The notes under the pieces are model-generated. The model did not search any database and was not told where the DNA came from. It saw only the letters and a program-made list of their open reading frames with translations. Shown one piece after another: positions 22,204 through 64,000 of a DNA stretch of 64,000 nt (position 1 is the first letter of the stretch; the number at the start of each line of letters is the position of its first letter). The stretch lies in the NCBI GenBank assembly GCA_947595235.1, contig CANQEP010000001.1:7451-71450 (forward strand), in the 5' to 3' direction. The DNA is from an uncultured Clostridia bacterium (GTDB lineage Bacteria; Bacillota; Clostridia; Christensenellales; UBA1242). Made by a program: the position numbers and the translations under genes.

Positions 22204-23625
22204 CTAACTCGCCTTTAAATTTATATGCAACGCCGGGCGAACGCACCCATTGGGATTCTGGTTATCGTCGTCAATTATGGTTGTGGCCCCATTGCAACGA
22301 ATAAAACATGATTGATAGGAAGATGGACCAGCAGATCGTAGCCACCAAAAACAAGTCATATTCCTATAAACTGTTCTATATGTATATGAGGGGTAGGGAT
22401 AACATATGGCATTGTTCCCTATTGCAAAGTCTGTAGGGGAACAATATCTATTTACATCTTTATTCTTAAAAACTCCGTTTGGGTTCGCCATCTCCCAATA
22501 ACTCTTAAGATATATCTTGTCTTGCGTTGGTATTCCAGAGTTATCGCTCATTGCATTGTCATAATTACCTGTTACATTATTCCTTATAGTGGTCTGTTGT
22601 ATTATCCCTTTTTCATTATCGTCAAAGGCAGTTCTAATAAAAGCATCATTTAGCCATGACCGTATATCTGAGTTTGCCCATAAGTTATTATTCTTTGCGC
22701 TAAATGCAATATTTGATACTATCGCTTGAGTGCTAAGTATCTCGGCATATCCATCTTGTCCCATAGTTTCGTAATTGAGTATGTACCATTTTAATGGCTC
22801 AACCTTAAACCATGCCATTCTCCCAGTTGTTGGCGACGAATTGTCTTTATATTTACTATAGCTGTCACACTTTGTCTCTGTTCCTCTAGCGTACATTTCT
22901 CCGTTATATTCATATAATGTCCATGTCGTTGACCCGACTTTAAAACTTTCTTTTGTCTCTTGACCTTGACTATACCAACTCTCCAAAGTTGAGTTCATAC
23001 TCGAACCAACATACGTTTGTGGAAAACTACCAAATTCTAGAGTCCTTAGCCTAAATGATGAACTCGTTGAACCAACCGTCTCTTGAGCCCCAATCTCTGG
23101 CGGTACCCATGTTGTATATTGATAAATATCGTTTTTGCTAATATTTGCCGAGGGGTCAATATTGACTATTGCCCCGTCTTCAATATATATCGCGGGTCCT
23201 TGTTCTGCAGTACATCCCGTTATTGTTCCAGCCTTTATTGTTAGCGTTGCACCAGTGGAGACATATATTCCTCCACCATATTGTGCCGAACAATTTGTTA
23301 TTGTTCCTCCATTCATGGTGAAGGTTGCGCCAGTTGAAATGAAGACTGCACCGCCATAGGTTTTGTTTTTCCCCGAAATAGTGCCACCATTCATGGTGTA
23401 GTTTGTGTTGGGGTCAATATATATTGCTCCACCTTTTTGACTGGTTGGTGCTGAACTTGCTCCGCTGTCTGACGCACTTCCGCTTGCGCGCACCTCGGCA
23501 GAAAAGTTTTTGTTGCTCGTTTCTTTCACTTTTGACGACATAAGTGGTAAAATGATGCCAAGTGCCAAAGCCGAAATAACAAATATAATGGTCAATGAAA
23601 CTAATAGTTTTTGCTTGATTTTCAT
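22204..23625 (-). CDS. Signal-anchored surface protein: Pmp-like beta-helix repeats plus a C-terminal WWLRS...VRPAL domain (paralog 1)
   Basis: ATG 23625 follows AGAGGGA. TM anchor LLVSLTIIFVISALALGIILPL. Repeats GGAIYI../YGGAVFI..ATFTMNGGTI../YGGGIYV. C-terminal blocks FGSFPQTYVG, WFKVEPLKWYILNY, CSPTDFA, WWLRSAG, CVRPALHINL. Paralog of 60059..61471. Confidence 0.75.
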   Translation of the reverse strand: MKIKQKLLVSLTIIFVISALALGIILPLMSSKVKETSNKNFSAEVRASGSASDSGASSAPTSQKGGAIYIDPNTNYTMNGGTISGKNKTYGGAVFISTGATFTMNGGTITNCSAQYGGGIYVSTGATLTIKAGTITGCTAEQGPAIYIEDGAIVNIDPSANISKNDIYQYTTWVPPEIGAQETVGSTSSSFRLRTLEFGSFPQTYVGSSMNSTLESWYSQGQETKESFKVGSTTWTLYEYNGEMYARGTETKCDSYSKYKDNSSPTTGRMAWFKVEPLKWYILNYETMGQDGYAEILSTQAIVSNIAFSAKNNNLWANSDIRSWLNDAFIRTAFDDNEKGIIQQTTIRNNVTGNYDNAMSDNSGIPTQDKIYLKSYWEMANPNGVFKNKDVNRYCSPTDFAIGNNAICYPYPSYTYRTVYRNMTCFWWLRSAGPSSYQSCFIRCNGATTIIDDDNQNPNGCVRPALHINLKAS

Positions 23626-23650
23626 AATTTCCCTCTTTTTTAACACAATA

Positions 23651-23698
23651 ATACATCATTTTGTGATGTATAATCAAGCAAAATACATCAGTTTGTGG
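23651..23698. promoter_or_regulatory. Candidate XRE operator: palindrome plus a third half-site inside divergent promoters
   Basis: ATACATCA-TTTTG-TGATGTAT (23651-23671) and a repeated ATACATCAgTTTGTG (23683-23697). Overlaps the minus-strand promoter TTGATT(23677-72)-18-TATTAT(23653-48) and the plus-strand TATAAT (23669-74). Confidence 0.45.
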
Positions 23699-23710
23699 CA
23701 TATTTATATT

Positions 23711-23923
23711 ATGAATTTAGCAAAGAAAGTTGGAGAAAACATAAAGTCAGCGCGAAAGGCCAAGGGTTTAACGCAGAAAGAGGTTGCCAAGATTTTATTC
23801 ATGACTCAACAGCAATACAGCCGATTTGAGAACGGCATCTTTGAACTCAACTACCAGCAACTTCTTGACATCTGCAAAATCCTCGACATCACCCCCAACG
23901 AGATCTTTGACTTCGGCATATAA
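23711..23923 (+). CDS. XRE-family helix-turn-helix transcriptional regulator (70 aa)
   Basis: MNLAKKVGENIKSARKAKGLTQKEVAKILFMTQQQYSRFENG... is the classic Cro/C1-type HTH. Divergent from paralog 1. No obvious SD. Confidence 0.8.
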   Translation: MNLAKKVGENIKSARKAKGLTQKEVAKILFMTQQQYSRFENGIFELNYQQLLDICKILDITPNEIFDFGI

Positions 23924-24367: not shown

Positions 24368-24781
24368 CTAGCGCTTGCTGAATTGAGGAGCCTTGCGGGC
24401 TTTTTTCAGACCATACTTCTTCCTCTCTTTCATGCGTGGGTCACGGGTCAAGAAGCCTGCGGCTTTGATGTCTGCCTTGTAGCTCTCATTGTTAATAACA
24501 AGAGCGCGTGCAATACCATGACGGCAAGCGCCTGCTTGACCAGCAAGGCCACCACCATAAACATTGACATTGACGTCATACTTCTTTTCGGCACCAACCA
24601 AAACAAGAGGTTGCTTAACGATACCAATCAAAGTATCTTGCTTAAAATACTCTTCAACTGGAACCTTGTTAATTAAGATCTTGCCCTCGCCAGCGGTCAA
24701 TCTAACCCTTGCGATAGCCTTTTTTCTTCTTCCGGTTCCCCAAGTTTGCTCTTTTGCTTTGTTTACAATTTTCTTTGCCAT
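24368..24781 (-). CDS. rpsI: 30S ribosomal protein S9
   Basis: 137 aa ending ...[29 protein letters not shown], the canonical S9 C-terminus. Confidence 0.95.
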
Positions 24782-24787
24782 AGTTTT

Positions 24788-25228
24788 TTACCTTTTCCCC
24801 TCAAGAGTTATAAGTTCAGGCTTTTGAGCCTCGTGGCCGTGGTTAGCGTCCTTATATACTCTTAGTTTTTTGATCATTTGACGGCCGATTCTGTTTTTAG
24901 GGAGCATGCCTTTAACAGCAAGATAAACAGCCTTGTCGCTCTTTTCACTCATAAGTTCTTTGTATTGAACTTCTTTAAGGCCACCGATGTAGCCAGTGTG
25001 ATAGCGATAGTACTTTTTCTCCATCTTTCTTCCAGTCAAAACCACTTTGTCGGTATTGATAACAACAACATGGTCGCCGGCATCAACATTTGGAGTGAAT
25101 TCTGGTTTGTTTTTTCCACGAAGGATTGTTGCAACTTGGCTTGCAAGTCTGCCAAGAGGCATATCTGTTGCATCAACCAAATACCACTTGGTTGACTTGT
25201 CTGCTGGATTGTGATAATAAGTTTTCAT
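24788..25228 (-). CDS. rplM: 50S ribosomal protein L13
   Basis: ATG 25228 follows AAGGAAA. MKTYYHNPADKSTKWYLVDATDMPLGRLASQVATILRGKNKPEFTP is a typical L13 N-terminus. The track ORF start (25285) is an upstream extension. Confidence 0.9.
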   Translation of the reverse strand: MKTYYHNPADKSTKWYLVDATDMPLGRLASQVATILRGKNKPEFTPNVDAGDHVVVINTDKVVLTGRKMEKKYYRYHTGYIGGLKEVQYKELMSEKSDKAVYLAVKGMLPKNRIGRQMIKKLRVYKDANHGHEAQKPELITLEGKR

Positions 25229-25389
25229 TTTCGTTTTCCTTGAAATTATACTATTTGTTTCATCTTGTTTGCTAACGGGACACAATCAAGACTCAACTTG
25301 CTTTGATATTCTAATATATTTTGCAAAATAAGTCAATGATATTTTTTAATTTTCCATTATATTTTAATTTTTTTGCGCCAAAAATCCCC

Positions 25390-46460: not shown

Positions 46461-47624
46461 TTAGGTTTTTATGAATTTTAATGCATTTTTGCTGTATTCA
46501 AGCGCAATTTCTTTGTTTTCTTCTGCCATTTCGCTTGTTTTTTCGTTAAATTTGCCAAGAATAGCCACAAAATCGTCGTTTCTTAGTTTTGTATTTTTCA
46601 TGAGCATCAAGTAGATGACTGTTATGAAATTGAGTTTGTCATCGTCGGTCAACTCGCCGTCTAACATTTCGCGTGCAGAGAGCATGAACTTCTCGCTTTC
46701 AAAGTCAACAAGTTGTGTCTTTAAAAGAAGGTCGCAGAGCATATATTGAATGTCAGAGTCAACTTCCTTCGCCTCACACATGAGTTCAACAAGGCTGGTC
46801 ACGTTCTCTTCTTCCACCTTCGACAAACTTTCGGGCACCGCATACGCTTCATGAATGTCAGAGAGAATATACTTATACTTGTCCTTTGCGCTTCCCTTTA
46901 TCTCGCTGTTGAGCGCGCAGAACTTTTGCTTGTTTTCTTCAAAGTTCCCTTCCAAAATAGAGCCCACAACAAGCTGTACGTCGCCAAGTTCTTTCATCTT
47001 TGCGAAGGCAACTTTTCTCTTTTTTATTTCTTCTTTTTCTTGGCGATACCTTTTTAGAAGGTTCTTCCCCTCGTCGGTGTTCTCGTAGTTTATTCTTGAA
47101 AATGTCAAGTATAAGCAATACGCCAAAGTGGCCGCCGTCAAAATTCCCGCGCCATAGTAACTGAAATATATGGCAAACAAGATGCCCAAAAACGCGATAG
47201 TGTTTGTCTGCTTTCCAACAACAAACCTTGAACCAATTCTTATTGTGTCCCCTTGGCGGGTCTCCAAAACAAAAACATTCCCGTCGATGTTAAGAAGTTT
47301 TCCGCTCCCGCGGTATGCACTTGTATAAAAACATACAATGTCATCAGTCTGCGCGTCAAAGACATTTTTGTATGGCTCAATAACAACAAGGTCGGTCGCC
47401 GACGCGCCAAAATAGTGCCTTGCGTCAAATGTTCCGTCAAGTTTATATTTTAAAAACCCCGGATACAGTGAACGATAAAAGCAAAAGATATAACTTATGG
47501 TCAAGAGCGCAAGCAAAAGCGCAAGCACCAAAAATTTGACAACCACTTTCCCTCTGCTGTCTTTGACTTGCGTTTCTTTTGCTATGTTCAAATCATAAAC
47601 ATCATTTTTCACTATTCGTTCCAC
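46461..47624 (-). CDS. Membrane protein with a peptidase-S26-like but Ser-less ectodomain and a helical cytoplasmic domain
   Basis: 387 aa. The TM1 - beta-rich segment (DLVVIEPYKN...DDIVCFYT...GDTIRIGSRFVVGKQ) - TM2/3 layout parallels SipW but lacks the SMxP box. The C-terminal ~200 aa are helical. Confidence 0.45.
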   Translation of the reverse strand: MERIVKNDVYDLNIAKETQVKDSRGKVVVKFLVLALLLALLTISYIFCFYRSLYPGFLKYKLDGTFDARHYFGASATDLVVIEPYKNVFDAQTDDIVCFYTSAYRGSGKLLNIDGNVFVLETRQGDTIRIGSRFVVGKQTNTIAFLGILFAIYFSYYGAGILTAATLAYCLYLTFSRINYENTDEGKNLLKRYRQEKEEIKKRKVAFAKMKELGDVQLVVGSILEGNFEENKQKFCALNSEIKGSAKDKYKYILSDIHEAYAVPESLSKVEEENVTSLVELMCEAKEVDSDIQYMLCDLLLKTQLVDFESEKFMLSAREMLDGELTDDDKLNFITVIYLMLMKNTKLRNDDFVAILGKFNEKTSEMAEENKEIALEYSKNALKFIKT

Positions 47625-47884
47625 CTAACGAGCAACAAGGTACGGCTCGCGTCAATGTTAATCTTCTTGTAGATATTTTTGTGAGAAAACTCGCTTCTTA
47701 TAAATTCTTTAAGAACTTTGCCCTTGTGGTAGCCGTGCGTGACCAAGATGCCTTTTATGTTGGTGTCAAGAGAGGACAGAAGATAAACAAGTTCTGCCCT
47801 TGCCTCTTCTTTTGTTAAGCCGTGAAGGTCTTTTTCAAAAATTTTGCCGTACTTGACTTCAAGAAAGGCGGATTGCTCGCTCAC
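47612..47884 (-). CDS. Smr-domain protein
   Basis: DLHGLTKEEARAELVYLL...ILVTHGYHKGKVLKEFI matches the Smr DLHG/HG pattern. Best start is GTG 47884, 6 nt after GAGGGG and 1 nt after the upstream stop. The track start 48004 overlaps the upstream gene. Confidence 0.6.
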   Translation of the reverse strand: MSEQSAFLEVKYGKIFEKDLHGLTKEEARAELVYLLSSLDTNIKGILVTHGYHKGKVLKEFIRSEFSHKNIYKKINIDASRTLLLVRWNE

Positions 47885-47885
47885 C

Positions 47886-49367
47886 TTAGTCCCCTCGCCT
47901 TTTGACGCTTGGCAAGAGCGCACTTGTGCTGAAAGGCTCACCGCAAGTTGGTGGTTCTTTTGTGAAACCAATAATTCTTCCGTTCTCTGGAGAAACAATT
48001 GCATCTTCTCTCATGAAACGAACATCCCAATAAATATAGGTGTAATAAATCTCGCCCGTCGCCGCATCGCGTTCTTTTTTATATAGTTTTCTGTCGGCAA
48101 AATCTTTGAATCCGGCAGAGTTCTCGTCAACATAGAAGTCAATAATGAATGAGTCTGTCAGTCGCTCATCGCCAATCTCTGCACTAACACTAATTGTTGC
48201 GGTTGCATCATGCAAATTCTCTCTGTCCGATGTGTCCCATGCAACAATGTAATACTCGTTGCCAATTATCTCAATTTGCTTCATGTCCTCAGAACTTGCG
48301 CTGTTTATGGCTGCAGTAACATAGAAAACATCGCCATTTGTATAGACAACTCTAACCTTGAAGTTGACGATATTGACGTCACTTGTCAAGATTATCGCGT
48401 CAATCTTTTCTTCGCCCTCTTTGATGTCCCCTTTGCCATAAATGTTCTTTATGGTTTTGAAGTCTGAGGTGGTGTCAACGCAAAGTTGAATGTTAATTGC
48501 ATAGTTACCACGAACGTCAACCGAAACAATGAACGACTCAACAACCTCGCCCTCTTCTCCACCATGGCGCGATTGCAAAGTTATGTACTCTCTTGTGTCA
48601 AGTTTGCTTTGCTTTGCCTTTATAACAAGACTGCTGTTCGCATCGTCGATATAGATGTCTTCAAAGACCTCGGTGTTATAGTCTTTAATAACATAGATGC
48701 CCGAAAGGTTGATGTCGCTTGCTTGCCCACCAAGAGTGGAATCGAACTTGAATGAGTAGTCCTTGTCGTCAGCATAGATGAACACCTCGTCTTCGCTGAT
48801 GACATTTTTGTTGACCTCGGGGTCAGTGACAATTTCGAATGAAACGGGCGCGTTCTCTCTCACAGTCAAAACAAAACTGTCATAAACGCTTGGATTTTCT
48901 GTCGCATAAACACTTATTGTCGTTTTCCCCGCCTTGAAATATTTGACAGTGTAAACATCATCGCCCTTTGGCTCAATAGTGGCAATATCGCTGTTTGACG
49001 ATGCCGTAACAAAATCAACTTGCGCCGACGCTGAATAGGTTATTGAAACTTCAAACTCGTTTTCGTTTTTGCTTGTCAAAAAGACATCTTTTTCAAAAAC
49101 TTCAACAAGTTCATATTCTTCTTTTGGCTCTTCTGGGGTCTCGGTCGGCTGGTCACCTATGGTTCCTTCTTGGTCACTTGGCGCGTCCTCATCGGGAGTT
49201 TCTTCTGGGGTCTCGGACGCCTCAACCTTCACCAACTCAACAAATCTGAGGTTATAGACCGTCGCCGTTGAAAGCCCCGAAAGAAAAGTGATGCCAACAA
49301 GCACAAGAATTGCCGCAACCAGAAATGCAACACCTGCTATTATCCATTTTTTCAACTTTGAACTCAT
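47886..49367 (-). CDS. Signal-anchored surface protein with an acidic Pro/Glu/Thr linker and Ig-like beta-rich repeats
   Basis: 493 aa. TM anchor WIIAGVAFLVAAILVLVGITFL, linker ETPEETPDEDAPSDQEGTIGDQPTETPEEPKEE, beta-rich body. Promoter TTGACA-16-TAAAAT upstream. Confidence 0.55.
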   Translation of the reverse strand: MSSKLKKWIIAGVAFLVAAILVLVGITFLSGLSTATVYNLRFVELVKVEASETPEETPDEDAPSDQEGTIGDQPTETPEEPKEEYELVEVFEKDVFLTSKNENEFEVSITYSASAQVDFVTASSNSDIATIEPKGDDVYTVKYFKAGKTTISVYATENPSVYDSFVLTVRENAPVSFEIVTDPEVNKNVISEDEVFIYADDKDYSFKFDSTLGGQASDINLSGIYVIKDYNTEVFEDIYIDDANSSLVIKAKQSKLDTREYITLQSRHGGEEGEVVESFIVSVDVRGNYAINIQLCVDTTSDFKTIKNIYGKGDIKEGEEKIDAIILTSDVNIVNFKVRVVYTNGDVFYVTAAINSASSEDMKQIEIIGNEYYIVAWDTSDRENLHDATATISVSAEIGDERLTDSFIIDFYVDENSAGFKDFADRKLYKKERDAATGEIYYTYIYWDVRFMREDAIVSPENGRIIGFTKEPPTCGEPFSTSALLPSVKRRGD

Positions 49368-49476
49368 ACTTTTATTTTGTACCCTTTCTTATATTTATAT
49401 TTTACTAAATATAAAAATATTGTCAACAAAAATCGCCCCTATAAGAATTAGATAAAAATTTTAAGAAAATTGACAT

Positions 49477-49506
49477 GAAAAAACGGCGATTGCTCGCCGT
49501 TTTTTA
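49477..49506 (-). terminator. Bidirectional intrinsic terminator after the 951-aa gene
   Basis: ACGGCGA-TTGC-TCGCCGT flanked by A6 and T6. Confidence 0.75.
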
Positions 49507-49513
49507 TGTTTTG

Positions 49514-52369
49514 TTATGCAACAAAGTTGTTGTATGCAACAAGTTCTGCATTCTCTTTGTCGTAGCCGTTAACATCAACAACATCAGATGCGCTAGTGTT
49601 GAATGAATAGCTAATACCGAATGTGTATTGATATCCGCAACCAATAGTAACAATGTGTCTTGGTCTTCCACCATCTTCACCAAAAGCATAAGTGAATGTT
49701 ACTTGATGAGCCTCGATTGTAACCTTGCTAACTTCGTTTGTTGAAATGTTGAAGTTAGAAGTTTGAGAGTTAATAAGACCAATTGTTGCGCCAAGTGCTC
49801 TTGCTCTATATGCCCCGGCAGCAAGAACTTTGTCGGCATCCTTCAATGCTTTTGCCTCTTCAGCAAAGTCTGCAGTTATCTTGAGAGATGAAACTTTGTT
49901 AGACTCAATTCGTGTTGCAGTAACATTAGCAAAGTCAAGTGCGTCAACATTCTTGTCTGTGCCAGCATATTTGCTTATTGCACCAACAAGTCCACCAGCA
50001 ACGAATATGCCGACATCTTCTTTTTGTCCGTCGTCTGCCTCGGTCTTGTTAACGCCAATAGCATAGAAACTGTTATAGTTGAAGTACATTTCGCCAGCAA
50101 GAACGCTGTTGTTTTTAAGAGTCATTCCAACGCCGCCCTCATCACCGATGTATCTTGAAATAAGTCCACCAACATAGGCTGCGCCCAATTTCAAAGTCTT
50201 GTCTGCGTCGCTGTTAACAAGAAGACTTGCAACGCTGTTGTTCTCGATGTCTGCACCCTCTCCAGCAATGTTAACAAGGCCAGCAATCATGTAGGTTGAA
50301 GAGAACATTTGACCATTAGAGAATTTGCCATATGCAGAAGTGAATTTTGCACTCTTAACGTCAACGCCAGTAACCTTTGCGTTCTTAACTTGATAAGCAA
50401 CGCCTGCATAGTTAACTGAACCAACAACATCATTTGCAACGAATGATGCTCTTCCCTCAACCTCAACCTCAAGGTTAGAGATTTCTGGAACGACGTCAAA
50501 CTTCTCATCACGGTCATATCCTGGGTCGTTATAAACTGCAACACCGGCAGATATAGAAGTTGTTCTCAAAATATAGAGTGCCTCGGCAGTTGTTCCGTCG
50601 GTTGGGTCTGCGCCCATGCCTTCAAAAGCAACTTTGATGGCAGTTTTTGTTTCAACAAGTGTTTCGCCTTCTGCTGGCTCATTTTGAGCAACAAAACCAG
50701 CAATCTTTCCATAGTTAGCAATGGCAACGCCACCATTTCTGTGACCCTTAAGAGTTACGTCAATAACTGGAGCGTCAAATGCCTTTGTGTATTCAACTGA
50801 AGTGTGAGGGTTAATTTGATATGCAACGCCCGAAGCGTCATCGGCTTGAATAACACCTTTAACAGTGACATCTTTAACAGATGAAGTGTCTGCCTCGTTT
50901 GAAGTGCTACCAAGAACACCAACAACACCAGCAACTTGTCCACCAAGCATATATGCGTCAATATTTTCTACAGTGACGTTAGAGATTGATGAAACAAAGT
51001 CTGCAGTGCGAGTGCCAGTTGAGTCAATGCTAGTAAGAAGTCTGCCAGCAACACCACCAGCGAGAGTAGCCTTTTCTAGGGTGTAGTCAACATTCTTCTT
51101 TTGAGTTGTGTCTGAGATGTTAAATCTTGTAACGTTTGTGTTAACGATGTCGGCGCAATAACCACGACCAACAACGCCACCAACGGTTGATTCAAGTGAG
51201 TATAGAAGTGATGCAGTGAAAGAAACATCAACATTTTCAATCTTGTTCTTAAGTTCTTTTGTCACTTCGATGTTGTCAAGGTTGTAGGTGTTGGTAAGGT
51301 CACCAACAACGCCACCAATTCTTGTTCCCTTTGCATAGGTTGGTTGGTTGTTAACAACAACGCTTGTAACACTAAGGCCACTAATTCTAACAAGAGCGCC
51401 CGAACCAACAACGCCACCAATACCATTAGAAACTGTTGTTGTTTGTCCATAACTGTAACCAGTGATGGTTGACGCAATGGCGGTCTTTTCTTCGCCCTCT
51501 GCAGTAACACCAACAATGTCTACATTCTTTGCATAGCCAGCAACAACGCCGATGTTAAGTTTTGCAAATGCAGTGTAGGTTGTTTCATAAGTTCCGGTAA
51601 GAGCCTCAAGAGCGTCGGCACTAACATTGATTTGTGCTGCGCCAGTTCCGTCGGTTCTGCCAAATCCAAGGTTAGAAATTGTGTTGTTCTCTATGGCACC
51701 GAACAAGCCAAGGTCAACATATGCCTTGCCTTCACTTTCATGAGTGAAGCGGCTATCTTCTGCCAAGAGGTCAGCCTTTGTAACGCTGATTTTGAGGTTA
51801 AGAATTTTGAACCCATTACCATCAATGTTTCCATTGTATGGGTGTCCTTCCCAACCGATAGGCTCCCAGTTCTCGTTGCCAAGGTCGATATCGCCGGCAA
51901 GTTTAACATATTCTGGGGCAGTTGCAGTCAAAGACTCATTGAACGAATCTCTGAGTTTTGCAAAGTGGTTGGCATTAGGAACAATCCATGGGTCGTCACT
52001 TGTTCCAGTACCTTGGTTGTAGACAAAGATGTTGTAGGTTATAGTGTTGTACTTGTCTGTGTGACCAACTCTGTCAAGAGTGACAACAGCGGATACCTCG
52101 CCCGCCTTTTTAGCCTTATAGATTCCGGCGGTTTCTGTCTCTTCAATAGGCATAGCGCCACCATCTGGGATTTTGAAAGCAATATTATCTTTGTTATAAT
52201 CTTTGAAAACAGTAACTTCGTCGTCTACCAAATACGCGAGTCTAACAACATCGTTTCGTGGGGTGAGTGGGTTTGAGCCACCGAACACACTGACGATAGT
52301 GTAGATGCCAAGCGCAAGTGTCACAACGAGGCTTATGATCAAAGTTGAGATTAAACTCTTTTTAGACAT
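49514..52369 (-). CDS. Large signal-anchored surface protein with GLUG-like repeats
   Basis: 951 aa. TM anchor, then many G-rich beta-helix-type units (IGGVVGSG, IGGVVGDL, VGGVVGRG, AGGVAGRL, VAGVVGVLG, YVGGLISR, VAGGLVGAI) reminiscent of the GLUG motif. Confidence 0.6.
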   Translation of the reverse strand: MSKKSLISTLIISLVVTLALGIYTIVSVFGGSNPLTPRNDVVRLAYLVDDEVTVFKDYNKDNIAFKIPDGGAMPIEETETAGIYKAKKAGEVSAVVTLDRVGHTDKYNTITYNIFVYNQGTGTSDDPWIVPNANHFAKLRDSFNESLTATAPEYVKLAGDIDLGNENWEPIGWEGHPYNGNIDGNGFKILNLKISVTKADLLAEDSRFTHESEGKAYVDLGLFGAIENNTISNLGFGRTDGTGAAQINVSADALEALTGTYETTYTAFAKLNIGVVAGYAKNVDIVGVTAEGEEKTAIASTITGYSYGQTTTVSNGIGGVVGSGALVRISGLSVTSVVVNNQPTYAKGTRIGGVVGDLTNTYNLDNIEVTKELKNKIENVDVSFTASLLYSLESTVGGVVGRGYCADIVNTNVTRFNISDTTQKKNVDYTLEKATLAGGVAGRLLTSIDSTGTRTADFVSSISNVTVENIDAYMLGGQVAGVVGVLGSTSNEADTSSVKDVTVKGVIQADDASGVAYQINPHTSVEYTKAFDAPVIDVTLKGHRNGGVAIANYGKIAGFVAQNEPAEGETLVETKTAIKVAFEGMGADPTDGTTAEALYILRTTSISAGVAVYNDPGYDRDEKFDVVPEISNLEVEVEGRASFVANDVVGSVNYAGVAYQVKNAKVTGVDVKSAKFTSAYGKFSNGQMFSSTYMIAGLVNIAGEGADIENNSVASLLVNSDADKTLKLGAAYVGGLISRYIGDEGGVGMTLKNNSVLAGEMYFNYNSFYAIGVNKTEADDGQKEDVGIFVAGGLVGAISKYAGTDKNVDALDFANVTATRIESNKVSSLKITADFAEEAKALKDADKVLAAGAYRARALGATIGLINSQTSNFNISTNEVSKVTIEAHQVTFTYAFGEDGGRPRHIVTIGCGYQYTFGISYSFNTSASDVVDVNGYDKENAELVAYNNFVA

Positions 52370-52410
52370 ATTTTTCCTCCTTATGCATATTATGCACTTA
52401 ATTTACCCAT

Positions 52411-52439
52411 AGTATAGCAAAGACCCGCCCCAAAGTCAA
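52411..52439 (-). promoter_or_regulatory. Promoter of the 951-aa surface protein gene
   Basis: Minus strand: TTGACT (52439-34), 17 nt, TATACT (52416-11). Same TTGACTTT -35 flavour as at 61594. Confidence 0.55.
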
Positions 52440-52459
52440 TACCAAAACAAAAATAAAAT

Positions 52460-52503
52460 AAAAAAAAGAGCCAAATTTTTATTAAAAAATGGTTCTTTTT
52501 TAG
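52460..52503 (-). terminator. Bidirectional intrinsic terminator after the lipoprotein gene
   Basis: AGAGCCA...TGGTTCT stem flanked by A8 and T7. Confidence 0.55.
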
Positions 52504-52549
52504 TGTTTTTGCGTTTTTTAACCGATTTACGCCCATTTTGTGGCTGATT

Positions 52550-53560
52550 TTATGTCAAAAACTGCACTTGTACTGTAATTTTGATTTTTACGGGATTTCC
52601 ATCCGTTCCAATGTCAAGAGTTTGTATGGTTATGTCAACCGTTCCACCCGCAGAATTTACCTCGTCTTTTGCCTTTGCAGTAAGGGTGTAGCCCCCTTGG
52701 TTTTTTTCTAAAGTGAAGAACTTGTCATTTGACAAAAATACTTCATAGTCTGCAAGGTCAATCTCAATATTTGACGAGTCAAAATACCTTGCTCTAATTT
52801 TGAACTCCTCACCACCGCTAAGCGACAAGTTAAGTTTGTTTTTGTCACGGATAACGCTATTACCAAATGTTGCAAAGACGTCGTTAACACTGCTAACAAC
52901 GTTAAGCCTTATGGTTGCCGAAAGGCCAGTTTGCGTTGTGCCCTCGCTGTTGCAGACCTCCACCTTCACCTCAGAAGAGCCACGCCTCCCCGTTGACTGA
53001 ACGGTCAGCCCTTGCTCGTCTTTAACCTCGATAATGCTTGGATCAGAACTTGTTATTTTATAGGTGAATTCGTTGTTGTTAACATTCCTTCTCCCCGACA
53101 AGAACTCTCCCGAAAGACCAAGAACATAGGTCGCCCCGCCATAAACAATGTCGCTCGCTTTGGTTGTTCCGTCCTTGTTGAAAAAGCCCACCGAGGTTGG
53201 GTACTCTCTTAAACGCACCTCGCAAGTATCAGAAAAGTCGTTGAGGCTGATTGTTATTCTTATTGGAGAGTATGCTTGACTATTTATGTTGTCGCGAATT
53301 GTGAAGTAGCCATTGCTAAAAACGTAGGTGTCGGCGTCGTCAATTCCGTCGCTGACGTTGTAGGTGACGTTGTAACTTTGGGCGGTTGATGGATAAATTT
53401 TGTAGTCAAGAAAAGTCCTTACGCCCTTGTCGACATAAAAGACCTTGTTAACAAATTTTATTCCCGAAACGGCATTGCTACCCTCAACTCCGCAAGAGGC
53501 GAAGACAAAGAGTGAGCAAAGGCACAGACCAATAACAGAAAAGAACTTTTTCATATCCAT
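52550..53560 (-). CDS. Lipoprotein with Big_2-like Ig domains
   Basis: Signal MKKFFSVIGLCLCSLFVFASCG (lipobox ASC). Segments such as YKITSSDPSIIEVKDEQGLTVQSTGRRGSSEVKVEV resemble bacterial Ig-like group 2 domains. Promoter TTGACA-18-TATAAT upstream. Confidence 0.6.
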   Translation of the reverse strand: MDMKKFFSVIGLCLCSLFVFASCGVEGSNAVSGIKFVNKVFYVDKGVRTFLDYKIYPSTAQSYNVTYNVSDGIDDADTYVFSNGYFTIRDNINSQAYSPIRITISLNDFSDTCEVRLREYPTSVGFFNKDGTTKASDIVYGGATYVLGLSGEFLSGRRNVNNNEFTYKITSSDPSIIEVKDEQGLTVQSTGRRGSSEVKVEVCNSEGTTQTGLSATIRLNVVSSVNDVFATFGNSVIRDKNKLNLSLSGGEEFKIRARYFDSSNIEIDLADYEVFLSNDKFFTLEKNQGGYTLTAKAKDEVNSAGGTVDITIQTLDIGTDGNPVKIKITVQVQFLT

Positions 53561-60058: not shown

Positions 60059-61471
60059 CTAAATCGATAGGTGCAAAGCCGGACGCACCCCTCCGTTCCC
60101 GTAATCGACAGAAATGCGGCTGAGGCCCCCAAGGTTGTCTACGTCACAGGCATTATAAGCCGTCCAGCCCGCCGAACGGAGCCACCAGTTGCACGTCCCT
60201 GTCCTATAGTTCGTCGTGTAACTAGTATACATATAACAATAATTACTTAATGCAAAGTCTGTCGGAGAACATATCCTTGATGCGTAACCATTCCCTACGT
60301 TAAAGTCCTCAGCAAACATGTCGTGACCCATTTCGTAATATGTCTTGCAGTATACATAGTCCTCTGTCGATTCTCCAGTCCACGAACTTGGTGCACTATT
60401 ATATTCTTTTGTTATTCCATTCTTGTTTTTCGTTAGTGCTATTATTTCTCTCTCATTCTCATCAAATGCTGTTTCGTAAAATTCGTCTCTTAGCCATGTT
60501 TGCAGTTCAGAACCTTTCCAGTTATTCCCTGCACTTGTTGTTGGATTGAATCTTATGTAACTTGTCAATGCCAACTCACTCAACAACTCTATATTCTCGG
60601 TCCCACTCTGCCATGCGTCGTAGTTCAATATATACCACTTTATAGGCTCAACCTTGAACCAAACCGCTGTTCCAGTTGCTTTGACTGTTGTCCCATTCTT
60701 GTATGTGTATGACGAACCCGAACTATATCTATAACTACTTCCCCTTGCATATAGTTGTCCGTCAGTATACTCATACGCATCCCATACTTGCGAATCACGA
60801 ATGGTATATGTTTTTACCACTTTCTTTCCAGAATACCAATTCTCAAGTTGGTCATTTAAGTCATCCCCAACATATGTTTGTGGATACGAGCCAAAGTACA
60901 TGGTTCTTAGTTTAACCGTAGACAAAACCCCATCATATGTTCCCCCCATGGTCTCCTCTTCACCCATGACATATAGTGGGACATAATAATCAACTATATT
61001 TCCATCCACAACACTTGTTCCGTCAATGGTGAGGTTGCCACCCTCTTCAACATAGATGGCGGGACCACCTTTCTCGGCAGTGTTGTTGAGTATGTTCCCG
61101 CCATTTATAATGACCTTTCCACCATTTTCTATATATATTGCTCCGCCATACATGGCACGACAGTTCTTTATTGTTCCCCCATTCATGGTAAATGTTGCTT
61201 TGTTAGAAACATAGACCGCCCCACCATAAATATTTTTATGGTTCTCTATGGTTCCACCAGTCATTATATATGTTGCACCCTCTTCAAGGTATATTGCTCC
61301 ACCTTTTTGGCTTTTGTTGGCTGAACTCGCTCCGCTCTCATCCGCAAGAAAGTTCCTTGTGTCCAGTTTTCTTTCCTCATTTATTGCCAACGGCAAAACA
61401 ACCCCAAAGCAAATGGCAATTATAATTGCAAATGGAATAACAAAACCAAATATCCTCTTTAATTTATTCAC
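60059..61471 (-). CDS. Signal-anchored surface protein: Pmp-like beta-helix repeats plus a C-terminal WWLRS...VRPAL domain (paralog 2)
   Basis: Best start is GTG 61471 (GGGGG 7 nt upstream), giving NKLKRIFGFVIPFAIIIAICFGVVLPL, collinear with the paralog 1 N-terminus. Blocks SQKGGAIYL, YGGAVYV, ATFTMNGGTI, FGSYPQTYVG, WFKVEPIKWYILNY, CSPTDFA, WWLRSAG, GVRPALHLSI. Confidence 0.75.
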   Translation of the reverse strand: MNKLKRIFGFVIPFAIIIAICFGVVLPLAINEERKLDTRNFLADESGASSANKSQKGGAIYLEEGATYIMTGGTIENHKNIYGGAVYVSNKATFTMNGGTIKNCRAMYGGAIYIENGGKVIINGGNILNNTAEKGGPAIYVEEGGNLTIDGTSVVDGNIVDYYVPLYVMGEEETMGGTYDGVLSTVKLRTMYFGSYPQTYVGDDLNDQLENWYSGKKVVKTYTIRDSQVWDAYEYTDGQLYARGSSYRYSSGSSYTYKNGTTVKATGTAVWFKVEPIKWYILNYDAWQSGTENIELLSELALTSYIRFNPTTSAGNNWKGSELQTWLRDEFYETAFDENEREIIALTKNKNGITKEYNSAPSSWTGESTEDYVYCKTYYEMGHDMFAEDFNVGNGYASRICSPTDFALSNYCYMYTSYTTNYRTGTCNWWLRSAGWTAYNACDVDNLGGLSRISVDYGNGGVRPALHLSI

Positions 61472-61566
61472 TCCACAACCCCCTATTGGCAAGGTATTTG
61501 CAAGAGCGCATAATAAAAACACTCAGCGCTTGCACCCCGCCAAAATTTTCACTTTTTTCGCACAAT

Positions 61567-61594
61567 ATGATACCCCCCCCCATATTAAAGTCAA
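61567..61594 (-). promoter_or_regulatory. Promoter of paralog 2 with a G9 homopolymer in the spacer
   Basis: Minus strand: TTGACT (61594-89) - TTAATAT GGGGGGGGG (G9 = 61581-61573) - TATCAT (61572-67). Spacer is 16 nt, of which 9 are the homopolymer. Confidence 0.55.
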
Positions 61595-61677
61595 GCGTTT
61601 TAACGGGGTTTTGTTAAAAAACTAAAAAAGTTTTTCAACAAGAAAACACATACCAAATTATGCATCCTTTTCTTTCA

Positions 61678-61708
61678 AACAAAAACCCATTGGCTAAAAC
61701 CAATGGGT
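61678..61708 (-). terminator. Intrinsic terminator after the InlB-B-repeat protein gene
   Basis: Minus strand: ACCCATTGG-TTTTAG-CCAATGGGT followed by TTTTTG. Confidence 0.75.
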
Positions 61709-61755
61709 ATCATTTTGTATACAATTACTTTCTGTTTTTATTTAGACGGACGATG

Positions 61756-64000
61756 CTATTGCCAATACGGTCTTCCGTCTTCATTAACTTTGCCCCAAAT
61801 ACGATTTGCTCTATCATCATAAATTTCAGATAAATAAGTTGAAAACTCAATAACCTCCCAAATACTGATACTATACTTAGAGGCTATTTCTTCTACATTT
61901 ACAAGAATACAATTATACAACCCTTCAATAGTAGCCATTTCATGTAAATATGGTCCTACACCAAAGGTTTCAGCGAATACATCTTCTAATAGGTCACATA
62001 AACTTTCAAAACTTATAAACTCAAATATTTCTTCAGGAAGAACTATTACGTCATAACCATCGTATATTAGTTGCGAAATGGCATTGAATAAGTCACCAAC
62101 GTTTTCTTCATCTTCATAGAGTCCAACTCTTTGGCAATTATAATGATGTTCCGTAAAAAGATTGAAATAGAAGTTAATTCTCTGTTGATAATCATTTGTA
62201 GTTACTTCACCGCCGTCATGCGTGAGATAATATATGAACCCGGCTCCAGACATTTGGGCCATGATTTCTTCAGTTGAATAATACTGAGGAAATCTACTAA
62301 GAATGACACAATCCCAAATGTGGTTTCCTTTGATGACCCACCCATCTCCAATACTATAATCTCCAATATCCTGAAGTCTATTATCACATAAAGTTGACAT
62401 CAAACCGAACTGCTCATAAAGTGATGTAACAAAATCACCATCATTATAATAACAATTGTTTGAGAAATACAAATCAGCCGCAACCACATTGTTGAAGTCA
62501 CTAACATTTGTAAAAGTGGTTCTTACAAAATCGACATTGTTATCTGGTCCCCAATTATATGCTAGGTATTCAAATGGGTCAATATTGTTTGTTGTATAAT
62601 ATTCTAATATACCACATGCCGATTCATAAACTTCAACAAATTTATAATTGTTGCCATCATATTCATCTGGATTCACTCCATCTATAAAAACATCGTTGAA
62701 TGCCATAATAATTGCTAAATCATATGGAGTCAAGATTTTATATTCCTCAACTGCGACTACAAGAGATTCCGGTTTTTTATCAAAGTACGCTGTTATTGTC
62801 ATTGAACTTGTCACCGTTCCAGAAGACAAACAACTCCAATGGTTAAACTCATAACCGCTATTTGCATTTGCGTGGATGGTTGTTCCGTTAATAGTCAAGA
62901 TGCTTCCACTTGTGCTGTAACTTGCACCATAAGAGACCTCTATCGACGACCTACTTACAGAGCCATAATTTGAGTTGTTTGGCTCAAAATATACAGTTAT
63001 TTTGTTTGGTGTTGCGGTATATTGCGCATAAAAGGTCGTATCCCCCGTTACCTTGTAACTAGAGATTGTTGAGCCACTTGAACTTGTTGACCAGCCACTA
63101 AAAGTGTAGATATAGTCATCCGTCGTCTTTCCGGCGACTTGTATCCACCACCCGCCAGACACCGTGACCTTTGAACTTGTAAGACTGATTGTTGTTCCAT
63201 AATATTCGTAGTCGTAGTTCGTGCTGTCTGCTCCACCATTCTTATCGCCCTTTGTTCCCGCATTGAACGTTACCTTATATTTTCTTGTGGATGTGGACCT
63301 TGTAAAGGTCGCCGTTATTGTTGTTGATGAGGTTATCGTTCCGCTGGTCTTTGACCAACTAGAAAAACTATACGAATACTCAGTCGAAGTTGAGGACCAA
63401 CTTGAGGCTGGCGTTGCGGTTACGCTTTGACCACCAATTGTTATTGTGCTTCCACTGGCGCTGATACTTGAGCCATATGGAACACTTATTGACGATGGAC
63501 TAACCGAGCCATAACTTGAGTCGTTAACTGAGAATGACACCGTGTAATACCTTGTTGATGTTGACTCACTGAAGTTGGCGGTTATGGTCATGTCGCTAGT
63601 GACCTTCGTTCCGCTATATGACCACCCCGTAAACGAATATGAATAGTTTGTTGTTGTACTTGACCAACTTGAGGCTGGCGTTGCAGTTACGCTTGTTCCA
63701 TTTATTGTTAATGTTTTTGAACTTGTTGAGATTGACGAGCCATAAGGAACATTTGTTATTTTCGACGCACTTACCGTGCCATAGTTCGAATTATTTGAAA
63801 CTATTGTAACAGTAAAGGTCTTTCCTTTTATAACAACATACCCGTTCTCAATGGCAAGTTCGTTTTCAACCGGCAAGTTGCTAACGCTGAGCCTGGACAA
63901 TGTAACGCTAGATATTCCGTCAAGTCTGGCCACGCGCGTTCCCACCGAAGTGCTTGCCACACGGATGTTAAAAGTTGCGCTTGGCTGGGCCTTAAGAGTT
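61756..64000 (-). CDS. Surface protein with four divergent InlB-B-type repeats and an unrelated acidic C-terminal module (5' end beyond the window)
   Basis: The frame is open to the window edge (the track GTG at 63960 is internal). ~90-aa repeats such as YTVSFSVNDSSYGSVSPSSISVPYGSSISASGSTITIGGQSVTATPASSWSS..YSFSSWS..TITATF. The last ~345 aa (61756-62790) are Cys/aromatic/acid-rich with no repeat. Confidence 0.65.
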   Translation of the reverse strand, partial: TLKAQPSATFNIRVASTSVGTRVARLDGISSVTLSRLSVSNLPVENELAIENGYVVIKGKTFTVTIVSNNSNYGTVSASKITNVPYGSSISTSSKTLTINGTSVTATPASSWSSTTTNYSYSFTGWSYSGTKVTSDMTITANFSESTSTRYYTVSFSVNDSSYGSVSPSSISVPYGSSISASGSTITIGGQSVTATPASSWSSTSTEYSYSFSSWSKTSGTITSSTTITATFTRSTSTRKYKVTFNAGTKGDKNGGADSTNYDYEYYGTTISLTSSKVTVSGGWWIQVAGKTTDDYIYTFSGWSTSSSGSTISSYKVTGDTTFYAQYTATPNKITVYFEPNNSNYGSVSRSSIEVSYGASYSTSGSILTINGTTIHANANSGYEFNHWSCLSSGTVTSSMTITAYFDKKPESLVVAVEEYKILTPYDLAIIMAFNDVFIDGVNPDEYDGNNYKFVEVYESACGILEYYTTNNIDPFEYLAYNWGPDNNVDFVRTTFTNVSDFNNVVAADLYFSNNCYYNDGDFVTSLYEQFGLMSTLCDNRLQDIGDYSIGDGWVIKGNHIWDCVILSRFPQYYSTEEIMAQMSGAGFIYYLTHDGGEVTTNDYQQRINFYFNLFTEHHYNCQRVGLYEDEENVGDLFNAISQLIYDGYDVIVLPEEIFEFISFESLCDLLEDVFAETFGVGPYLHEMATIEGLYNCILVNVEEIASKYSISIWEVIEFSTYLSEIYDDRANRIWGKVNEDGRPYWQ

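Follow-up and report, generated by a model that had tools for sequence, protein, structure and literature searches.

A 64-kb window (the whole stretch of DNA analysed) from an uncultured Clostridia bacterium contains an uninterrupted run of nine G between the -35 and -10 hexamers of a promoter that faces a gene for a putative surface protein. The question raised by this locus is whether the run is inert filler, or whether its length changes and thereby sets the expression of the gene. It is argued below that G9 is probably a simple-sequence contingency element in the core promoter, conferring phase or "volume" variation by slipped-strand mispairing, as at porA and opc. That the promoter is used, that its transcription depends on the length of the tract, and that switching is frequent and reversible are inferred here from the sequence.

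The minus strand reads CGC-TTGACT-TTAATAT-GGGGGGGGG-TATCAT over 61567-61597, ATTGTG coming next, and direct reading places the run where the preliminary description had located it (Table 1). A consensus scan recovered the same hexamers as TTGACT-16-TATCAT at 61594..61567 (-), with 10 of 12 matches, in line with the 16-nt spacer first described; nine of these 16 nt are G. This is the sole promoter-like site found by the scan on the minus strand between the upstream terminator and the gene. The end of TATCAT lies 95 nt from the GTG at 61471, and the terminator stem 90 nt from the start of TTGACT, which agrees with the position initially proposed, about 95 nt before the start codon and just past the terminator. 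The latter has a 10-pair stem with five GC pairs and the tail TTTTGTTTGA, and is predicted to insulate the poly-G promoter from read-through. From the promoter geometry, transcription would start near 61558-61561.

Table 1. Coordinates of the promoter features and of other elements cited in the text.
Feature	Position	Strand	Basis or remark
Controlled gene, 470-aa protein, GTG start	60059..61471	-	most plausible start at 61471
Likely ribosome-binding site AGGGGG	61479-61484	-	seven nt before GTG
Inferred 5' UTR, ~90 nt	61472..61560	-	promoter geometry
-10 hexamer TATCAT	61567..61572	-	sequence read and promoter scan
G9 homopolymer (C9 on the plus strand)	61573..61581	-	variable part of spacer, proposed slippage site
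7-nt TTAATAT, fixed part of spacer	61582..61588	-	sequence read
-35 hexamer TTGACT	61589..61594	-	sequence read and promoter scan
Intrinsic terminator hairpin of upstream gene (ORF 61756-63960)	61685..61708	-	followed by T-run
Examples of canonical intergenic promoters	16897, 34215, 40194, 46100, 53608		
Multi-copy element of related loci	L003 1552-1690; L008 1675-1786; L010 8866-9692; L011 8356-9526		

The preliminary description had noticed no longer G/C homopolymer in the window; G9/C9 is in fact the single G/C run exceeding six in the 64 kb. The G+C content is 42.6%, and the number of runs of at least nine expected in the window with independent bases is about 0.10 for C and 0.02 for G. 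Two other explanations of the region were discarded. A riboswitch or leader was dropped, as no Rfam family matches the promoter region (chance-level matches only), the window or the four related loci that were searched. A frameshift switch on the plus strand was rejected: the ORF at 61248-61625, which spans C9 and runs antisense to the gene at its 5' end, has a low-complexity translation and was judged spurious. The hairpin predicted in the 5' UTR is no better than that of shuffled sequence (z = -1.35).

Most other intergenic promoters of the window are of the form TTGACA/TATAAT with spacers of 17-18 nt. These canonical promoters indicate that the organism uses ordinary sigma-70-type promoters, and the spacing found elsewhere in the genome implies that spacer length should matter; a single G gained by the tract would bring its spacer to 17 nt. 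It had been stated that other promoters share the same TTGACTTT -35 with 17-nt spacers. This holds for one example only, 52439..52411, which reads TTGACT-17-TATACT and starts with TTGACTTT; elsewhere the -35 is mostly TTGACA and the spacers measure 17-18 nt. The promoter at 52439..52411, with its G-rich spacer TTGGGGCGGG, precedes a 951-aa ORF, one of four consecutive large ORFs (387, 493, 951 and 336 aa) at 46461-53560 (-), none of which has a Pfam match at an E-value of 1e-3 to 1e-4 or better. In the whole window the gathering score of an Rfam family is nowhere attained, hence no tRNA, riboswitch or ribosomal-protein leader was recognized, and the rplM-rpsI genes at ~24400-25285 are without a match to a ribosomal-protein leader.

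The only Pfam match of the controlled protein is to DUF6273 (PF19789), in the C-terminal third (residues 327-486), with 65.2 bits for a cut-off of 23.5. In NCBIfam, the region of GGAIY repeats gives a marginal match to POMP_repeat (16.5 bits, cut-off 15). The AlphaFold model, computed with 40 homologues, has a pLDDT of 88 and consists of an N-terminal membrane or signal-anchor helix (residues 2-30), beta-helix rungs (residues ~60-180) and a globular C-terminal DUF6273 domain. The designation as a secreted beta-helix protein is thus roughly right: the rungs and the N-terminal helix are present in the model, and the C-terminus is the globular DUF6273 domain. A fold search of the PDB returned a single convincing match, the IgA peptidase of Thomasclavelia ramosa, in which the N-terminal domain is annotated DUF6273 and is dispensable for IgA cleavage (PMC12402451). 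In a library of viral structures, the best matches were phage DUF6273, tail-fibre and receptor-binding proteins. DUF6273 is C-type-lectin-like and is a target of diversity-generating retroelements (DGR) in phages (PMC10743442). Because of these domains, the model, the fold matches and the DUF6273 literature, the product is modelled as a protein, secreted or anchored in the membrane, whose beta-helical stalk bears a binding-type head. Surface-type proteins with a ligand-binding-type domain are the usual gene class under phase variation, and the helix 2-30, beta-helix, DUF6273 domain and fold matches would place the controlled gene among surface-exposed, contingency-type genes.

The gene had been labelled paralog 2, and a paralog 1 is indeed found at 22204-23625 (-), with 44% identity and a DUF6273 match of 73.9 bits. 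No G-run is present in its upstream region (23640-23860). A small divergent ORF with an XRE-like helix-turn-helix is found there instead, and the promoter is overlain by repeated palindromic motifs TGATGTAT/ATACATCA. From these sequences, the two paralogs in one genome appear to follow different control logics, by a repressor and by poly-G. The same contig apparently contains, beyond the window, yet another paralog, the third (P0023, 47% identical). The gene that precedes the poly-G promoter (ORF 61756-63960, -, still open where the window ends) codes for a large protein rich in serine and threonine. Its repeated ~95-residue modules weakly match the InlB B-repeat-like family Flg_new_2, and its C-terminal domain has no family match. 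It is probably another surface protein, and the region may therefore be a small surface-protein cluster.

The family of the controlled protein comprises 162 members at an E-value of 1e-10 or better; where a source is named, in a few cases, it is a Clostridia MAG. The closest homologues are P0001 (67% identity) and P0002 (57%), and the bulk is about 47% identical. The protein collection contains the pyruvate kinase and paralog 1 of the window at 100% identity, but not the controlled protein, for which 67% is the highest identity; the second-best pyruvate kinase is 69% identical. The contigs of six family members were compared (P0026, P0014, P0006, P0022, P0049 and P0091). The first four belong to one cluster of 60 and are 47-49% identical to the protein of the window. 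Homologues with poly-G occupy three chromosomal sites, next to Mur ligase/IleRS, GlyRS/UvrB and Ppx/MreB-MinD. The Mur-ligase protein of the related organism is 76% identical to that of the window and adjoins a DUF6273 gene in both.

Nine of the ten related contigs reach the promoter, and share the layout of a -35, 7 nt, and a poly-G tract that abuts TATNAT (Table 2). The tract lies between recognisable -35 and -10 hexamers in eight of these nine cassettes, the exception being L005 with a degraded -35, and the -35 directly follows a terminator hairpin in eight of nine. The preliminary description had proposed a comparison of tract lengths; made at the homologous loci of the related organism, it gave 9-13 G, as expected for a contingency tract. 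Lengths differ between contigs that encode an identical protein (G11, G10, G9, G7TG5 and G13 with P0026; G11 and G13 with P0022). L003 and L007 match without mismatch over 1,740 bp, the sole difference being G11 or G13. All ten G/C runs of at least seven in the 190,875 bases of the window and related loci are spacer tracts in promoters of DUF6273 genes.

Table 2. Poly-G promoter cassettes of the related loci and of the window.
Locus	Protein	-35	7-mer	Tract	-10	Spacer
L003	P0026	TTGACA	AAGTTCT	G11	TATGAT	18 nt
L004	P0026	TTGACA	AAATTCT	G10	TATTAT	17 nt
L005	P0026	degraded		G9	TATGAT	
L006	P0026	TTAACA	AAATTTT	G7TG5	TATGAT	20 nt
L007	P0026	TTGACA	AAGTTCT	G13	TATGAT	20 nt
L008	P0014	TTGACA	AAATTCT	G13	TATTAT	20 nt
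L010	P0006	TTGACA	AAAATCT	G11	TATTAT	18 nt
L011	P0022	TTGACA	AAACTCT	G11	TATGAT	18 nt
L012	P0022	TTGACA	AAACTCT	G13	TATTAT	20 nt
Window	paralog 2	TTGACT	TTAATAT	G9	TATCAT	16 nt

When the cassettes are aligned, substitutions fall in the 7-mer and at position 4 of the -10, the -35 and positions 1, 2, 3, 5 and 6 of the -10 being kept, as expected for a working sigma-70-type promoter. The bases right after the -10 (ATATT.T.G) are common to the window and its relatives. The 7-mer of the window was scored as different from those of the relatives at all seven positions; with unrelated 7-mers the layout could be convergent rather than inherited, and the common descent of the cassette is uncertain. Searches of the genome and metagenome contig collections with variable-spacer promoter patterns returned no DNA match, and protein-based locus searches of the same collections returned only two weak, irrelevant loci (L001 and L002). 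Neither the poly-G cassette nor relatives of it were found in viral contigs.

The tract is missing from two more distant clusters. L013 (P0049) has no tract and an ordinary A/T-rich upstream region. L014 and L015 (P0091) have no tract either, but a divergent gene with an XRE-type HTH, and a TTGACA-17-TATAAT promoter with the palindrome GGTATCAT...ATGATACC (L014 9900-9990). L014 shares synteny (Ppx ... DUF6273 ... MreB, MinD, M23, M50) with two of the poly-G loci, L010 and L011, so that a poly-G promoter in one lineage corresponds to repressor-type control at this chromosomal position in another.

The tract lengths of the relatives come from short-read metagenome assemblies with a coverage of 3-13x, and have to be read accordingly. 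Six of the ten related contigs (L004, L005, L006, L007, L009 and L012) end within ~320 nt upstream of the gene, at or beside the promoter cassette or a repeat element, and in L005 and L006 what lies upstream of the tract is unrelated sequence. It would seem that the assemblies are interrupted or mis-joined at the cassette by repeats or by heterogeneity of the population. Since the cassette is a multi-copy repeat in the relatives, single lengths may be imprecise, mis-joined or borrowed from a paralogous copy. Nevertheless, the range of 9-13 and the difference between L003 and L007 are hard to explain by error alone. In practice, poly-G tracts of this kind appear to interrupt short-read assemblies immediately upstream of the controlled genes. 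A separate multi-copy element of ~110-290 nt was observed beside the poly-G cassettes of related loci, with one to three copies per locus and 27-nt inverted ends (CTTTTGCTCTCC... / ...GGGGAGCAAAAG). In L008, it is located between promoter and gene and lengthens the 5' UTR to ~450 nt. It matches no Rfam family and could be a MITE-like element or a structured RNA.

In the proposed mechanism, slipped-strand mispairing during replication would add G to the homopolymer or remove it. With nine of the 16 spacer nucleotides in the run, each slip would alter both the distance and the angle between TTGACT and TATCAT. The optimal 17-nt spacer would be reached with G10, for which activity is predicted to be maximal. 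G9 (16 nt, the assembled state) and G11 (18 nt) would have reduced, intermediate activity, and a promoter with G8 or fewer, or with G12 or more, would be almost off. The spacers of the relatives, 17-20 nt, would span predicted on to off states. A clonal population would always be mixed, with cells expressing the beta-helix/DUF6273 protein at a high or intermediate level or not at all, and could thereby hedge against whatever targets or requires this protein, be it antibody, phage or a binding niche. The G9 of the window would vary within its own population. It equals the poly-G cut-off of 9 set in PhasomeIt for Neisseria (PMC7371114), and stands only just at the length from which tracts are generally regarded as hypermutable. 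At the sequence level, the locus has the tract length, the position between hexamers and the surface-type target of a contingency element, length polymorphism being seen at homologous loci only.

The commonest assembled lengths of the relatives, 11 and 13, give spacers of 18-20 nt, which are suboptimal if the optimum is 17 nt. Such spacers would fit mostly-off states, and would fit equally a promoter without simple spacing dependence. It must also be considered that the poly-G is mutable and its variation functionless, the tract being a tolerated or drifting filler or the relic of a spreading cassette, with expression set by other regulators. The scatter of the relatives' lengths over 9-13, without a peak at the optimal 10, would be accounted for in this way, as would copies with an appearance of decay, such as the interrupted tract of L006 (G7TG5) and the degraded -35 of L005. 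A neutral homopolymer this long normally shortens or acquires interruptions, however, whereas at least four loci of two organisms have retained uninterrupted tracts of nine or more G, always at exactly one position of the promoter, in genomes otherwise without G/C runs of seven or more in ~190 kb. The filler is disfavoured by this persistence, and the conservation of the -35 and -10 around the tracts also speaks against it. Functionless variation is thus considered unlikely.

It is also conceivable that the hexamers are not a working promoter, or that the poly-G acts by other means, as the site of a regulator or as a rigid G:C block that affects melting. The motif GGGTATCAT occurs twice in inverted orientation, at 61567-61575 (-) and 61705-61713 (+), and nowhere else in the window, and the palindrome in the promoter of the distant homologue L014 is found beside an XRE repressor gene; together they mean that part of the region could be an operator. 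Such a role is rather improbable, given that no other minus-strand promoter-like site is available between the terminator and the gene, and that in the relatives a perfect TTGACA is positioned exactly 7 nt before the tract, directly after a terminator. No regulator gene adjoins the poly-G loci and no Rfam element matches the window or the four related loci searched.

The same inverted motif belongs to a 14-nt inverted repeat, 61562-61575 / 61705-61718 (ACAATATGATACCC / GGGTATCATTTTGT), with one mismatch and 129 nt between the arms, which brackets the -35 and most of the tract. Its half-sites GGTATCAT/ATGATACC are those that make up the palindrome in the L014 promoter. Inversion of the 129-nt segment would uncouple the -35 and the tract from the -10. 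The known phase variation of Clostridia, in C. difficile, proceeds by promoter inversion (PMC11868660), and the repeat is rarer than chance, its 9-mer core occurring at two sites of the window only, a result equalled by 3 of 100 shuffles. An invertible promoter is nonetheless very improbable here. Most of the right arm is terminator stem of the upstream gene, both arms are shorter than would be expected of a switch in Clostridia, and the poly-G relatives L003, L008, L010 and L011 have no equivalent repeat. The window ORFs that were scanned against Pfam include no recombinase, although one could lie elsewhere in the genome.

Finally, although homopolymer lengths are error-prone, it is scarcely credible that the tract or its length is an artefact of two-colour Illumina poly-G or of long-read homopolymer error, and this explanation was rejected: nine independent contigs from two studies have the feature at the same place in the promoter, where spurious poly-G would not land repeatedly between a -35 and a -10, and in the window it is embedded within a long contig with unique flanks on both sides.

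To our knowledge, what has been charted of phase variation in gut commensals concerns almost entirely methylation and the inversion of promoters (Bacteroides, C. difficile). Switches based on repeat slippage are, as far as we know, regarded as peculiar to Neisseria, Haemophilus, Campylobacter, Helicobacter and mycoplasmas. No report of a repeat-slippage promoter switch in Clostridia was found in the literature searched, and in a 2025 review the Clostridia appear through the invertible promoters of C. difficile only (PMC11868660). The mechanism is textbook. What is new, and can be tested directly on existing reads, is its host group, the family of DUF6273 targets and the presence of the cassette at several loci of the relatives.

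A wider reading is put forward more tentatively, as plausible but still somewhat doubtful when taken as a whole: a family of uncultured gut Clostridia would run a multi-locus 'phasome', in which one poly-G promoter design stands before paralogous beta-helix/DUF6273 lectin-like proteins. The compact design (TTGACA/T, 7 nt, poly-G, -10) would behave in the related organism as a portable cassette inserted after a terminator, and would replace XRE-repressor control of the orthologous gene at some positions, as in L010 and L011 compared with the syntenic L014. Which of the binding proteins are displayed together would then be a matter of chance in each cell lineage. If true, this would be the first simple-sequence-repeat transcriptional phase variation described in Clostridia. 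Should the main reading hold, that of a conserved poly-G switch before lectin-like surface proteins, uncultured Clostridia would use the same bet-hedging device as the species in which it is known. It would also mark DUF6273 proteins, known otherwise from the receptor-binding domains of phages and as DGR targets, as being under fluctuating selection at the cell surface. The signature TTGAC[AT]-N7-G(9 or more)-TATNAT would serve for metagenome mining. A read-level assay of population dynamics within hosts would be at hand.

The closest parallels are in Neisseria, where poly-C tracts in the promoter spacers of opc and fetA cause phase variation. In the porA promoter of N. meningitidis, expression is high with 11 G between the -35 and -10, about 2-fold lower with 10 G and 13-fold lower with 9 G, and antibody selects the states of lower expression (PMC3639595). 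As in porA, opc and fetA, a G/C homopolymer of 9-13 is placed here between the -35 and -10 of a surface-protein gene. The host, in contrast to this Gram-negative pathogen, is an uncultured Clostridia lineage, known here from sequence alone; the tract abuts the -10 after a fixed 7-mer, and the target is a beta-helix/DUF6273 protein rather than a porin or Opc.

In Treponema pallidum, poly-G tracts upstream of the promoters of subfamily II tpr genes modulate by their length the transcription of paralogous candidate surface proteins. With respect to the hexamers, the tract is placed differently from the one described here, and the phylum is another one. The Pmp proteins of Chlamydia are likewise beta-helix surface proteins with GGAI-type repeats that are linked to poly-G variation. 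Their tracts are inside the coding regions and act by frameshift, and the proteins are autotransporters of a Gram-negative envelope, unlike the one considered here. Within Clostridia, phase-variable surface and signalling genes are known from Clostridioides difficile, with cwpV, flgB, cmrRST and pdcB (PMC11868660). They are switched by RecV through site-specific inversion, whereas slippage of a repeat is proposed here.

In Mycoplasma hyorhinis, the promoter spacers of the vlp genes contain poly-A. The review mentioned above cites the Vlp system (PMC11868660). It differs in that the tracts are poly-A and control lipoprotein genes of Mollicutes, the present ones being poly-G in front of non-lipoproteins, and in that, of the two paralogs that the window shows, a tract is present with one only. 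The likeness is in the arrangement: the vlp paralogs have each their own homopolymer promoter, from which combinatorial expression results, and in the related organism paralogous surface-protein genes are preceded by such promoters at three loci at least.
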